Shown: positions 4,486-13,748, numbered from the stretch's first letter. The stretch is 32,000 nt of DNA from Desulfobulbus propionicus DSM 2032 (GCF_000186885.1 NC_014972.1:1920001-1952000), one strand, 5' to 3'. The notes: generated by a model from the letters alone, not told the origin. Made by a program: numbers and translations.

Positions 4486-4490
4486 CTAGA
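4486..4490. repeat. Left copy of the 5-bp target-site duplication CTAGA
   Basis: CTAGA directly abuts IR-L. The identical CTAGA directly abuts IR-R at 13744-13748. A 5-bp duplication is the Tn3-family hallmark. Confidence 0.9.
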
Positions 4491-4528
4491 GGGGTATGAA
4501 GTCCAACGGAACGAAAACGTACGCTAAG
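4491..4528. repeat. IR-L, 38-bp terminal inverted repeat
   Basis: GGGGTATGAAGTCCAACGGAACGAAAACGTACGCTAAG. It shares the GGGG...GGAACGAAAAC...ACG.TAAG frame of the Tn3 IR and is 36/38 identical to the reverse complement of IR-R. Confidence 0.93.
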
Positions 4529-4596
4529 AATTCAATGGAGATGTTTCGATATCTAAAATCAGCAATTGAATCGAGAAACTGACTCTATCCTGCTAG

Positions 4597-4914
4597 TTAT
4601 AGGTCTCCTGTCATGCCAAATTCAATTGCCGTTTTAACAAAAAAAACGTTCACGTCTTCCTCCTTGATCCGTGCAAACAACCGTTCGGCATCCGCCTCGC
4701 TTACCGCCATGGTTACTTGCAGGGGTTGATCCGTCAGCTCAAAAAAATGCACAGAGCGTAATTTTCGATCATGGCCGTACCCCTCGGCAGCCTGGGTCAA
4801 CGTTGCGCCGCCAATTCCTATTGATCTAGCCTCCTCCACTAACCATTTCGCTACCGGTCGGCCTTTATGATTTCGATCCTGTTGCGTAAAAAATGTCAGT
4901 TGATATCCAAGCAT
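4597..4914 (-). CDS. DUF190 domain protein (CrcB-associated, PII-like fold)
   Basis: 105-aa ORF resembling DUF190 proteins (HKGRPVAKWLVEEARSIGIGGATL..AEGYG). Lies directly downstream of crcB, which is the usual pairing. GAGG Shine-Dalgarno 5 nt before the ATG. Confidence 0.8.
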   Translation of the reverse strand: MLGYQLTFFTQQDRNHKGRPVAKWLVEEARSIGIGGATLTQAAEGYGHDRKLRSVHFFELTDQPLQVTMAVSEADAERLFARIKEEDVNVFFVKTAIEFGMTGDL

Positions 4915-4929
4915 ATTTGCCTCGTTCTT

Positions 4930-5310
4930 TCAGCTTCTGAAGGCTGCAATCGTTGCCATACCCAAAATGGTCATGGAGAGCGACCCTATGACATGTATTG
5001 AAATCGCGATTCCGGCCCAAAGGAAACGCCCTTGTTGCAACAAGGTGGTTACTTCGGCGGAAAAGGTGGAAAACGTGGTCAGTCCACCAAGAAAACCGGT
5101 AATAACCATCAAGCGCCATTCCGGAGACAACTGGGGCACTGCCGCAAAGACCGCCAAGGCCACCCCGATCAAATAGCCGCCAAGTAAATTGGCGGCTAGG
5201 GTACCTGGCGGAACAAAGGGAAAAATAGTGTTCAGAGTGCGACCAAGCAGCCACCGCAACACCGCTCCAACTGAGGCGCCTACACTGATTGCAAGTATTG
5301 AGTTGAGCAT
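4930..5310 (-). CDS. crcB: Fluoride ion channel CrcB/Fluc
   Basis: 126-aa, 4-TM protein aligning along its whole length with E. coli CrcB: [34 protein letters not shown]. Confidence 0.9.
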
Positions 5311-5319
5311 AATATTTTT

Positions 5320-10553: not shown

Positions 10554-10667
10554 CGTCTCCTAATTCGATTCATGGACAATATGTCTATCAACTATCTTGT
10601 TTGCGAATTAATAGACAGTTTAATCTGGTTATTTTATACTGTCCATAAAATTATAAATTAGTAGACA
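10554..10667. promoter_or_regulatory. res recombination site (three candidate subsites) and divergent tnpR/tnpA promoter region
   Basis: AT-rich 163-bp intergenic region with TGTCYA/TRGACA half-sites. Site I 10640-10667: TGTCCATAAAATTATAAATTAGTAGACA, 28 bp with central TTATAA as in Tn3/gamma-delta site I. Site II 10582-10617: TGTCTA...TAGACA, 36 bp. Weaker site III 10554-10578: 25 bp, next to tnpR. Confidence 0.6.
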
Positions 10668-10707
10668 TTAAAATTGCTCGAAGTTCAGTTTTGATGGGGA
10701 GGGAATC

Positions 10708-13700
10708 ATGCCCGTCGATTTTTTAACCTCGGAACAGAAAGCCTGCTACGGCCAATTTTCTGGGGAACCTAACGAAGTGCAGCTGGCCCGATATTTTCAC
10801 CTGGATGAAGCTGACCTTGCTTTTATCAATAACCGGCGTGGTGATCAAAACCGTTTTGGTGTCGCCTTACAGGTGGGCTGTGTTCGATTTCTAGGAACCT
10901 TCCTCTTCGACCTGTCACGGGTACCTGTCAACGCGCAATGGTTCATTGCCCGACAGCTTGATATCACTGATGTTGGGATACTGTCTAAATATGCTCAAAG
11001 GGAGACCACGCGAAGAGAGCATACTGCTCTCATCCGCAATCAGTATCAATACCGAGAATTCACATGGCCCTGGTCGTTCCGGCTGAACCGCTTACTCTAT
11101 ACACGCAGTTGGATCAGTAACGAGAGACCAAGCCTACTGTTTGACCTGGCCACTGGATGGTTGACTCAAAATAAGATCCTTCTGCCCGGTGCTTCCACAT
11201 TGACACGTTTGATTTCAGAGGTGCGCGAACGAGCTACCAATCGTTTATGGCAACGATTATCGGCGTTGCCTGCCCCAACGCAAATTGCCAAGCTAGAGAC
11301 GTTGTTTCAGATCCCGGAAGGGTCAAGAACTTCTCGTTTTGATCGCTTCCGCAAGGGGCCGGTGACAATCAGTGGTCCCGCCTTCAATGAGGCAGTTGAC
11401 CGTTATCAGGAGCTGAAGACCTTCGGCATGCATGAGCTCGATTTCACAGGTATCCCGCCGGTACGCTTTAAGAACATAGCCCGTCACGCTGGTATGATCT
11501 CTATGCACAAAATCGCTCGCATGCCGGAGAGTAAGCGTACTGCTATTCTGGTTGCCTTCGCCAGAGCGTATGTGACCATCGCCTTCGATGAAGCCCTGGA
11601 CGTGCTGGATTTACTGATTACCGAGATCGCCGGTGAGGCTAAAAAGCTGGGCCAGAAGAAACGGCTACGTACATTGAAGGATTTAGATAAATCTGCGCTG
11701 GCGCTGGCAGAGGTTTGTGCTCTGATACTCAACGAAAGCATGCAGGATGAACTGCTGAGGCCGACTATCTTTGCCAAAATGCCACCTGAAAGACTGGCGG
11801 AATCCATTGCCACTGTCCATGACCTGGCTCGGCCCTACGACGATAACTTCCAAGATGAAATGGTGGAGCAGTATGGCCGGGTCAGGCGTTTCTTGCCGAG
11901 ATTATTGCATGTTATCAAATTTAAAGCAGCTCCTGCGGGGAAATCAACTCTTGAAGCCCATCAGTATTTGGCCGGGTTATTGGAATCACGCAAACAGTTA
12001 TTGGATGAGGCCCCACTGGACATTGTTTCTAATTCCTGGAAACGCATGGTGTTTGATAAAGAAGGGAGAGTAACCAAACGAGGTTATACGCTGTGTTTTC
12101 TTGATAAGTTGCAAGACAGCCTGCGCCGCCGGGACGTCTATGTCGAAAATAGTGATCGTTGGGGTGATCCACGTGCCAAACTACTACAGGGCCAGGAATG
12201 GCAAGCTAACCGAATTCAGGTGTGTCGGTCACTTGGTCATCCTCTGAATCCCCAAGAGGCCATTGATGCTCTGGTGCGCCAACTGGATGATACGTATAAA
12301 CAGGTAGCCAGCAGATTTGATGACAATGCGGTTGAGCTCGACCTGTCCGGCAAACGGCCAACGTTGACGATTACACACTTTGATAAATTGGATGACCCCG
12401 CCAGCCTAACTATCCTCTCACAACAAATTGAGGCCTTGGTTCCCAACGTGGATCTTACAGAGCTGCTACTGGAAATCCATACTCACACCGGCTTCGCTGA
12501 CGAATTTACTCATGTCAGTGAAGCCAATGCTCGCGTCGATGACCTGACTGTCAGCATCTGCGCAGTACTATTGGCGGAGGCTTGCAACATAGGGTTGGAA
12601 CCACTGATCAAGCACCATGTGCCCGCATTGACTCGACACCGTCTGAACTGGGTCAAACAGAATTACCTGCGTGCCGAAACATTGGTAAAGGCAAACGCCA
12701 AACTGGTGGACTATCAATCTACTTTATATCTAGCCAGGAAATGGGGTGGTGGCGAGGTCGCTTCCGCCGACGGAATGCGGTTTGTCACACCGGTCCGCAC
12801 TATTAATGCCGGGCCAAATCGAAAATACTTCGGCTCTAGCCGGGGCATTACCTGGTACAACTTTATCTCTGATCAATTCTCAGGGTTTCATGGTATTGTT
12901 ATCCCTGGAACATTGCGCGATTCCATCTTTGTGCTTGAGGGATTGCTGGAGCAGCAGACCGGTCTGAACCCGGTGGAAATTATGACCGATACCGCCGGTG
13001 CAAGCGATATGGTATTCGGTTTGTTCTGGTTACTTGGTTATCAATTCTCACCGCGCCTTGCTGACGCTGGCGAATCCGTATTCTGGCGCGTGGACAAGAA
13101 TGCCGACTATGGCGTATTAGATGACCTAGCACGTAGTTGCGTCAATACACACAAGATCGAGCAGCATTGGGACGACATGATGCGTATTGCCGGTTCACTC
13201 AAACTTGGTACCGTGCAGGCATCCGAGTTGATCCGATCTCTACTGAAAAGTGATCGTCCTTCCAGCCTGGCGCAAGCCATTATTGAAGCGGGTCGGATCA
13301 ACAAAACTTTGTATCTGCTAAATTACGTGGATGATGAGGACTACCGTCGCCGGATTCTGACGCAGTTGAATCGCGGCGAAGGCCGTCATGCCGTCGCACG
13401 GGCTATTTGTCACGGTCAGCGGGGCGAAATTCGCAAACGGTACCGGGAAGGTCAGGAAGATCAACTTGGCACGCTTGGCTTGGTGACCAACGCTCTGGTG
13501 TTGTGGAATACAATTTATATGCAGGCCGCCCTTGATCATCTAAAAGAACAGGGGAAGGATGTGAAAGAAGAGGATGAAGCCAGATTATCCCCTCTCAGCC
13601 ATAAACATGTGAATATGCTCGGCCATTACTCGTTTACCTTGGCGGAACAAGTACTGAAGGGCCAACTCAGGCCGTTAAAGCAGCCATCTGAACTGGACGG

Positions 13701-13710
13701 ATGGTCTTAG
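10708..13710 (+). CDS. tnpA: Tn3-family DDE transposase TnpA
   Basis: 1000-aa ORF. N-terminus MPVDFLTSEQKACYGQF...RGDQNRFGVALQVGCVRFLG is typical of the Tn3 TnpA DUF4158 region, and a Tn3-type DDE region follows. GGGGAGGG Shine-Dalgarno. The TAG stop (13708-13710) lies inside IR-R, as in Tn3. Confidence 0.95.
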   Translation: MPVDFLTSEQKACYGQFSGEPNEVQLARYFHLDEADLAFINNRRGDQNRFGVALQVGCVRFLGTFLFDLSRVPVNAQWFIARQLDITDVGILSKYAQRETTRREHTALIRNQYQYREFTWPWSFRLNRLLYTRSWISNERPSLLFDLATGWLTQNKILLPGASTLTRLISEVRERATNRLWQRLSALPAPTQIAKLETLFQIPEGSRTSRFDRFRKGPVTISGPAFNEAVDRYQELKTFGMHELDFTGIPPVRFKNIARHAGMISMHKIARMPESKRTAILVAFARAYVTIAFDEALDVLDLLITEIAGEAKKLGQKKRLRTLKDLDKSALALAEVCALILNESMQDELLRPTIFAKMPPERLAESIATVHDLARPYDDNFQDEMVEQYGRVRRFLPRLLHVIKFKAAPAGKSTLEAHQYLAGLLESRKQLLDEAPLDIVSNSWKRMVFDKEGRVTKRGYTLCFLDKLQDSLRRRDVYVENSDRWGDPRAKLLQGQEWQANRIQVCRSLGHPLNPQEAIDALVRQLDDTYKQVASRFDDNAVELDLSGKRPTLTITHFDKLDDPASLTILSQQIEALVPNVDLTELLLEIHTHTGFADEFTHVSEANARVDDLTVSICAVLLAEACNIGLEPLIKHHVPALTRHRLNWVKQNYLRAETLVKANAKLVDYQSTLYLARKWGGGEVASADGMRFVTPVRTINAGPNRKYFGSSRGITWYNFISDQFSGFHGIVIPGTLRDSIFVLEGLLEQQTGLNPVEIMTDTAGASDMVFGLFWLLGYQFSPRLADAGESVFWRVDKNADYGVLDDLARSCVNTHKIEQHWDDMMRIAGSLKLGTVQASELIRSLLKSDRPSSLAQAIIEAGRINKTLYLLNYVDDEDYRRRILTQLNRGEGRHAVARAICHGQRGEIRKRYREGQEDQLGTLGLVTNALVLWNTIYMQAALDHLKEQGKDVKEEDEARLSPLSHKHVNMLGHYSFTLAEQVLKGQLRPLKQPSELDGWS

Positions 13711-13743
13711 CGTACGTTTTCGTTCCATTGGACTTCAAACCCC
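13706..13743. repeat. IR-R, 38-bp terminal inverted repeat
   Basis: The reverse complement, GGGGTTTGAAGTCCAATGGAACGAAAACGTACGCTAAG, differs from IR-L at 2 of 38 positions. Confidence 0.93.
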
Positions 13744-13748
13744 CTAGA
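13744..13748. repeat. Right copy of the 5-bp target-site duplication CTAGA
   Basis: CTAGA immediately outside IR-R, identical to 4486-4490. Confidence 0.9.

Follow-up and report, generated by a model that had tools for sequence, protein, structure and literature searches.

Is the segment between two copies of CTAGA at positions 4,486 to 13,748 of a 32,000-nt window from the chromosome of Desulfobulbus propionicus DSM 2032 (NC_014972.1, 1920001-1952000) a complete transposon that moved recently, and what does it carry? The window denotes this whole stretch of DNA, and window positions are counted from its first letter. An initial annotation, made from the sequence alone, had described an intact Tn3/gamma-delta-subgroup transposon with a fresh insertion signature in a GC-rich, anaerobe-like chromosome. 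The present analysis supports with considerable confidence a complete transposon of the Tn3/Tn1000 subgroup that inserted recently and carries a captured cargo, which is read here as a fluoride module. The kind of element is ordinary and its cargo is the unusual part; the earlier account of the element and its ends was borne out, and the 5.4-kb cargo, its only unusual aspect, had been passed over there.

Recent movement of the element as one unit

The element is a Tn3-family unit transposon that spans window positions 4491-13743 (9,253 bp). It shows the hallmarks of this family, i.e., inverted repeats (IRs) of about 38 bp that begin with GGGG and end with TAAG and a 5-bp target-site duplication, and a 38-bp recognition sequence has been stated for Tn3-family ends (PMC9579193). 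The left and right repeats, IR-L and IR-R, are identical at 36/38 positions and both perfect CTAGA copies directly abut the GGGG ends, all at the coordinates given by the initial annotation (Table 1). A two-arm IR pattern with up to three mismatches matched the 32-kb window at these two sites alone, and 100 shuffled sequences contained no match. With a G+C content of 52.3% the element is also more AT-rich than the host flanks (59.7% and 60.5%), as had been noted for its backbone.

Direct evidence for movement comes from metagenomic contigs. Two contigs retrieved through the sigma-54 regulator in the flank, L003 (JGI 3300002219) and L004 (Logan SRR25252638), contain no IR, and the 77-nt junction obtained by deleting the element and one CTAGA matches both exactly; thereby the empty site reconstructed in the initial annotation was found verbatim in two independent assemblies. 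L003, whose record name contains the term SCADCLC, which presumably stands for short-chain alkane-degrading culture, is 99.98% identical to the window in the left flank and 99.0-99.2% identical in the right flank. Taken over L003 and L004, the flank identities range from 99.0 to 99.98%. A further contig, L002 (Logan SRR14932674), was retrieved through the exact TnpA and contains a copy that is identical at 9253/9253 positions, with both IRs and with ATAGT on both sides. Since the exact empty site is present in near-identical strains, and a second copy without a single difference has its own duplication at another place, the insertion is real and recent, as had been proposed, and the entire 9.25 kb moves as a unit. 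The insertion postdates the split of DSM 2032 from its ~99% identical relatives.

The copy in L002 lies in unrelated DNA with 49.7% G+C, directly upstream of an open reading frame (ORF) without known family. The L002 flank yielded no Pfam family and no plasmid match, and three homologues were found at 39-46% identity. As the flanking ORF has no identical counterpart among the D. propionicus proteins, the L002 insertion probably belongs to a different genome. The presence of two identical copies at different places agrees with replicative transposition, without constituting a proof of it. The element is probably still active, as the initial annotation had suggested. Precise excision was considered as a source of the empty sites and is very unlikely for a replicative element. 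A composite origin of the present unit from a minimal element and a stray IR was rejected, because in L002 all 9,253 bp have been transposed together and bear a duplication of their own. That misjoined repeats or flanks produced an assembly or chimeric artefact has a practically negligible probability, since the finished genome, the Logan contig with the full element and the two empty-site contigs all agree; the doubt that the IRs and the CTAGA flanks might be artefacts is removed by the independent assembly of the complete element in L002.

With the site known both occupied and exactly empty, and with an identical copy elsewhere, the natural evidence of movement is unusually complete for this Tn3-subgroup element, which is of textbook type and occupies an unusual place, the chromosome of a sulfate reducer. 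This natural record makes the element a clean candidate for registration in TnCentral/ISfinder and possibly a natural transposition tool for Desulfobacterota.

Transposase, resolvase, res and related backbones

TnpA matches the NCBIfam model transpos_Tn3 (NF033527) over its full length with 1082 bits (cutoff 500) and the Pfam families PF13700 (DUF4158, E 3e-50) and PF01526 (DDE_Tnp_Tn3, E 9e-154, profile positions 1-389 of 389). The residues D688, D761 and E891 align with D679, D751 and E881 of Tn4430 TnpA, which were stated to form its catalytic triad (PMC9579193), i.e., the DDE triad is conserved. Tn4430 TnpA itself gives a much weaker phmmer match of 433 bits, compared with identities of 69% and 66% for the Tn3 and ISEc63 transposases. 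The tnpA stop codon TAG (13708-13710) lies within IR-R, as the initial annotation had stated in analogy to Tn3, and a fetched Tn3 copy (L046), in which tnpA ends at 5209 and the IR covers 5205-5242, shows the same arrangement. For TnpR the matches in the PDB were the Tn3 resolvase (5CY1, E 1.9e-86) and the gamma-delta resolvase (1GDT, E 1e-83), and the alignment to the Tn3 resolvase is unbroken over residues 1-185, including the conserved N-terminal segment and the helix-turn-helix region.

The genes tnpR and tnpA point away from each other, and the spacer between them contains a res with three predicted subsites. This spacer of 163 bp is equal in length and colinear in Tn3 and ISEc63. The TGTC/GACA half-sites are conserved, as is TTATAA, which forms the crossover centre of site I (TGTCCATAAAATTATAAATTAGTAGACA) at 10651-10656; the names of the subsites follow the Tn3/gamma-delta literature. 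Within res there are divergent pairs of promoter-like hexamers, at the placement expected for TnpR-repressed promoters. The ORFs, described earlier as intact, are all full length compared with their profiles, and database search confirmed the homologies of TnpA and TnpR, including the close similarity to Tn3 TnpR. Together with the colinearity of TnpR, res and IRs with Tn3 and ISEc63, this agrees with the assignment to the Tn3/gamma-delta subgroup.

By analogy to the family (PMC9579193, with the general Tn3 literature), TnpA would bind both 38-bp IRs and make 5-bp staggered strand transfers into the target, replication would produce a cointegrate and TnpR would then resolve it at res site I; target immunity would also be expected. 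The element itself has entered an intergenic CTAGA of the DSM 2032 chromosome.

Some observations speak against an intact element of this type. The last ~21 codons of tnpR, after about residue 177, are non-homologous to relatives, and compared with Tn3 TnpR the C-terminal tail is 12 residues longer and unrelated. The promoter-like sites are not more numerous than in shuffled sequence. Furthermore, a matching 5-bp duplication is absent from the minimal or mer-carrying relatives L014, L017, L007, L015, L029 and L001, which have both IRs. This absence suggests that copies have recombined with each other or were rearranged afterwards, and these copies are therefore uninformative on target choice. 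The TnpR tail, together with the single copy visible in the window, would fit a recently arrived and now immobile copy with an altered TnpR C-terminus or a hidden defect in TnpA or res. This is rather improbable, as no ORF is shortened, TnpA retains the DDE triad, TnpR aligns to the Tn3 resolvase without a break over residues 1-185 and the identical copy at the second site shows that this exact sequence transposed very recently. The complete, recently mobile transposon is therefore preferred; the deviating tail came in with the cargo (see below).

Tn3, and likewise Tn1 and Tn2, shares with the element the succession of IR, passenger genes, tnpR, a 163-bp res and a divergent tnpA with its stop within the IR, as well as 5-bp duplications. 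In global identities Tn3 reaches 77.8% for TnpR, 69.3% for TnpA and 29/38 for the IR. It differs in its passenger, which is bla in this bla-TEM transposon of Enterobacteriaceae in contrast to the 5.4-kb seven-gene cluster found here, and in its host, here the chromosome of a sulfate-reducing member of the Desulfobacterota. The gamma-delta/Tn1000-like ISEc63 (TnpR 75.8%, TnpA 66.3%, IR 33/38) has a similar site I (TGTCC...TTATAA...GACA) and a colinear spacing of the three res subsites; its cargo differs. The closest annotated backbones are of the type of the mer transposon on plasmid pSx1 of Shewanella xiamenensis (TnpA 89.3%, TnpR 86.9%, IR 36/38), with ~80% DNA identity over tnpR-res-tnpA. 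The relatives of this type in Shewanella, Aeromonas, Stutzerimonas and Acidithiobacillus carry mer genes or no cargo, and in none of them was the fluoride-type cluster present. A megablast search of the whole element against 72,556 plasmids matched the tnpR-tnpA module alone (~80%) and gave no match for the cargo.

The 90%-identity cluster of TnpA has 27 members. One TnpA of more than 90% identity adjoins PEMT, an insertion sequence (IS), an ABC transporter and a two-component system and was found with at least seven different IR-R flanks, including one on a plasmid that encodes RepA_C and ParA. Another one, in a Desulfobulbus metagenome-assembled genome (MAG), has a P-type ATPase and a two-component system as neighbours. 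The genes next to these transposases are presumed to be cargo. Evidently the lineage of this backbone is both mobile and modular among anaerobic communities. Scanning genome contigs with the IR pattern yielded 32 loci, among others in Acidithiobacillus, Marinobacter, Photobacterium, Legionella and Chlamydiae MAGs; those with both ends are elements of 3.5-4.6 kb with little room beyond tnpR and tnpA.

The cargo cluster and its relation to fluoride genes

The cargo of ~5.4 kb comprises seven tightly packed minus-strand genes downstream of tnpR, ending with crcB and a DUF190 gene. The membership of CrcB in the fluoride efflux channel family is supported by NF010792 (180 bits, cutoff 125) and TIGR00494 (99.6 bits, cutoff 80.45). 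As the cargo combines CrcB with further families that are linked to fluoride riboswitches in other genomes, we infer a fluoride-stress module in which CrcB would export fluoride and the other genes would be accessory.

Fluoride riboswitches (RF01734) were called with 40-55 bits (gathering score 34) in or beside the homologous clusters of six loci, L039, L049, L050, L053, L054 and L055, and in none of the 143 kb of unrelated control loci. The prenyltransferase-like gene follows the riboswitch directly in L054 and stands second, after a dynamin-like GTPase, in L050 and L055. A metagenome scan with the prenyltransferase-like protein yielded two relatives, both informative. The cargo thus resembles RF01734-controlled crcB operons in having crcB and DUF190 and in that its other families stand behind riboswitches in related genomes. 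It differs from these operons in that it lacks the riboswitch, carries ChrB_N and a conserved palindrome instead, and is mobile. As a side observation, the riboswitch-preceded operons also encode a HIT protein, an AAA ATPase, PHO4 and enolase.

It is tentatively proposed, as a possibility that falls short of the probable, that the cargo represents an unrecognised multi-component fluoride-tolerance system of anaerobic Desulfobacterota, which was freed of its riboswitch and became mobile on a Tn3-family element. In addition to CrcB and DUF190, such a system may include the prenyltransferase-like protein, ChrB_N with its candidate operator TGTAAC-N4-GTTACA, the MFS transporter and the NifU-like/GGGtGRT pair. 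If true, this would be the first described fluoride-response transposon. The literature search returned no description of the element nor of a riboswitch association of the prenyltransferase-like or dynamin-like proteins, and to our knowledge a mobile fluoride-type gene cluster with several uncharacterised families is undescribed within the searchable literature.

Several results weaken the fluoride reading. No Rfam family matched in the window at gathering score or in the element at E up to 10, and a cargo that retained its fluoride riboswitch was rejected, as the Rfam scans of the element stayed empty even at that permissive limit. L051, the closest chromosomal counterpart of the cargo, has no fluoride riboswitch either. 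The NifU-like/GGGtGRT pair is widespread in anaerobes, usually away from fluoride genes, and may have an unrelated role. The promoter candidate TTGAAT-17-TGTAAT, which lies in front of the ChrB_N gene, fails the criteria of the promoter scan.

These results leave some room for a cargo that serves other purposes, such as oxyanions or chromate, iron-sulfur repair or metabolite transport, with crcB-DUF190 as a later passenger. ChrB owes its name to chromate sensing, in Nitrospiraceae loci the NifU-like/GGGtGRT pair stands alone without fluoride genes, crcB-DUF190 has no DNA homology to its L051 counterpart and is lower in G+C, and the transposon is without riboswitch. Nevertheless, such a cargo is considered unlikely. 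The N-terminal ChrB domain occurs alone and without ChrA, riboswitches lie upstream of operons with the prenyltransferase-like gene (L050, L054 and L055) and with MFS genes (L053 and L054), a riboswitch directly follows GGGtGRT in L039, and CrcB with DUF190 closes the cluster in four independent versions. The fluoride-stress module is therefore kept as the working assignment of the cargo.

As for the origin of the cargo, the gene order in L051/L052 (prenyltransferase-like, ChrB_N, MFS, NifU-like, GGGtGRT, CrcB, DUF190-CBS) is that of the transposon, and the DNA of L051 is 79-87% homologous to the window from 9963 to 5326. The corresponding protein identities are 76% (prenyltransferase-like), 93% (ChrB_N), 92% (MFS), 98% (NifU-like) and 94% (GGGtGRT); the MFS protein is 82% identical to that of L049, and the more distant MFS proteins of L053 and L054 share 29-31%. 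The DNA homology and the shared order show that the first five cargo genes were captured together as one pre-existing Desulfobacterota cluster. The crcB-DUF190 pair shows no homology of this degree to the L051 version and is lower in G+C; it has a separate origin, and the cargo thus joins the captured cluster to a different pair. DUF190 or DUF190-CBS follows crcB also in L051, L053 and L054. As homology to other backbones stops at window position 10014, and the cargo homology to L051 begins at 9963, the last ~21 tnpR codons and everything left of them came in with the cargo. The L051 cluster itself adjoins a phage-type integrase, a type I restriction-modification system and ArdC and thus also seems to lie in a mobile island. 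In both L051 and L052 an integrase of phage type and ArdC are found close by and the cluster is broken up by an IS; in L051 this is a DDE_5 IS (9238-10623) in the intergenic region between the prenyltransferase-like and ChrB_N genes, just downstream of the palindrome.

The palindrome TGTAAC-N4-GTTACA is located in the gap of 203 bp between the stop codon of the prenyltransferase-like gene and the likely start of ChrB_N, in the spacer of TTGAAT-17-TGTAAT. Among 66 loci (631 kb) the motif was found only in the transposon copies and in L049 (6878), L051/L052 (8894 in L051) and L053 (7973), always just downstream of the prenyltransferase-like gene and with conserved arms and a variable centre. Apart from the transposon, these are exactly the three independent loci that encode ChrB_N. 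The palindrome is thus a putative ChrB_N operator, with ChrB_N as its likely binder. Transcription of the prenyltransferase-like gene probably starts at the tnpR promoter, which TnpR represses, and the other six cargo genes would be driven from the promoter that has the palindrome in its spacer.

With respect to the single cargo proteins, the AlphaFold2 model of the prenyltransferase-like protein (pLDDT 92.9) has the RabGGTase beta subunit as its best PDB match (TM 0.71, 20% identity); the protein has five invariant cysteines, and no prenyltransferase alpha subunit was found nearby. The ChrB_N protein shows a PaaX_M-like match below cutoff, and its homologues have 180 aa, supporting the start at 8899. 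A ChrBA chromate system was not recovered, as the ChrB_N domain stands alone (180-214 aa), ChrA is absent and the adjacent transporter belongs to the MFS. The NifU-like protein is a constant companion of GGGtGRT, with which it pairs in L039, L040, L043-45 and L051. For this pair a protein identity of ~88% was observed between Desulfobulbus and Nitrospiraceae, more than 8000 GGGtGRT homologues were found at E<1e-30, and GGGtGRT also appears in rumen and gut proteomics papers.

The cargo points to uncharacterised riboswitch-linked families, i.e., the prenyltransferase-like toroid, an MFS clade, ChrB_N and possibly NifU-like/GGGtGRT. GGGtGRT and its partner are abundant in gut and rumen anaerobes without known function, which makes a functional lead useful, and the 5.4-kb cargo is compact enough to be cloned and assayed for fluoride tolerance.

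Table 1. Features of the transposon in the window and RF01734 calls in loci with homologous clusters; coordinates refer to the sequence named in the second column.
Feature	Sequence	Position	Strand	Remarks
Left target-site duplication CTAGA	Window	4486-4490	no strand	Single CTAGA in empty sites L003, L004
IR-L, 38 bp	Window	4491-4528	+	GGGG...CTAAG; GGGGTATGAAGTCCAACGGAACGAAAACGTACGCTAAG; matches Tn3, ISEc63 and pSx1 IRs
DUF190 protein, 105 aa	Window	4597-4914	-	PF02641, E 3e-14; last operon gene
crcB, fluoride efflux channel family, 126 aa	Window	4930-5310	-	NF010792; Pfam CRCB, E 9e-28
GGGtGRT-family protein, 332 aa	Window	5320-6318	-	PF14057, 635 bits; Despr_1681
NifU_N-like protein, 229 aa	Window	6330-7019	-	Weak NifU_N match, E 0.001, below cutoff
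MFS transporter, longest ORF 427 aa	Window	7065-8348	-	PF07690, E 1e-30; likely start 8336, 423 aa
ChrB_N-domain protein, longest ORF 214 aa	Window	8357-9001	-	PF20229, E 1e-44; likely start 8899, 180 aa
Palindrome TGTAAC-N4-GTTACA	Window	9049-9064		TGTAACGGTCGTTACA; putative operator of the operon from ChrB_N to DUF190
Prenyltransferase-beta-like alpha/alpha-toroid protein, 283 aa	Window	9103-9954	-	PF00432, E 3e-13; ATG overlaps tnpR stop (ATGA)
tnpR, serine resolvase, 197 aa	Window	9951-10544	-	Identical to ADW17838.1
res	Window	10553-10667	no strand	Site III ~10553-10577, site II 10582-10617, site I 10640-10667
tnpA, Tn3-family transposase, 1000 aa	Window	10708-13710	+	NF033527, DUF4158, DDE_Tnp_Tn3; identical to ADW17839.1
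IR-R, 38 bp	Window	13706-13743	-	Reverse complement GGGGTTTGAAGTCCAATGGAACGAAAACGTACGCTAAG
Right target-site duplication CTAGA	Window	13744-13748	no strand	
RF01734	L039 (D. alkaliphilus)	9159-9224		Directly after GGGtGRT, before Na/H exchanger-Usp
RF01734	L049	10246-10312		After prenyltransferase-like-ChrB_N-EEP-MFS, before Na/H exchanger-Usp-DUF190/CBS
RF01734	L050	1336-1397		Before dynamin-like-prenyltransferase-like-HIT
RF01734	L053	9560-9622		Between ChrB_N and MFS-AAA-CrcB-DUF190/CBS-phosphatase-enolase
RF01734	L054 (Desulfovibrionaceae MAG)	6863-6924		Directly before prenyltransferase-like-MFS-AAA-CrcB-DUF190/CBS
RF01734	L055 (Syntrophales MAG)	5208-5274		Before dynamin-like-prenyltransferase-like-HIT

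Host, insertion site and further occurrences of the repeats

Identity of proteins confirms the host as D. propionicus DSM 2032, a strict anaerobe with ~60% G+C, in agreement with the GC-rich, anaerobe-like chromosome of the initial annotation. The flavodoxin of the flank (ADW17830.1), CrcB (ADW17832.1), TnpR and TnpA are identical to entries of this strain, the flank and element proteins fall within ADW17830-ADW17841, and two cargo proteins correspond to Despr_1681 (GGGtGRT, 100% identical) and Despr_1685.

The intergenic CTAGA follows a 30-aa glutaredoxin remnant by 4 nt and precedes the flavodoxin gene by 96 nt. The 30-aa ORF (13753-13845, minus strand) shows a weak match to the C-terminal end of glutaredoxin alone (E 0.0046) and probably represents what is left of a gene; the empty-site strains have this ORF in unaltered form, and it was therefore not made by the transposon. 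The host flavodoxin gene, which lies downstream of the cargo operon, is oriented in the same direction as this operon. A sequence scan revealed no convincing terminator between the cargo and IR-L, and read-through into the flavodoxin gene is therefore possible. Further along the window (15850-31976), many PAS histidine kinases and response regulators and a CheB/CheR/CheW/MCP chemotaxis cluster are encoded, which are ordinary host genes unrelated to the element.

IR sequences of this type also occur in other settings. A 37/38 IR match was found in ~190 plasmids of Klebsiella, Enterobacter and Citrobacter; in the one plasmid inspected, Citrobacter pA18-1 (L048), the surroundings of the match at 4001-4038 contain an N-terminal fragment of TnpA, an ATP-binding protein and vapBC; this looks like a remnant or an end of a related element of clinical plasmids. 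The contig NODE_147 of Photobacterium pectinilyticum (L030, 3816 bp) consists of one minimal element from IR to IR with a coverage of ~2836x, and several further contigs of this genome end in the IR, which points to a very high copy number or to a plasmid-borne element.

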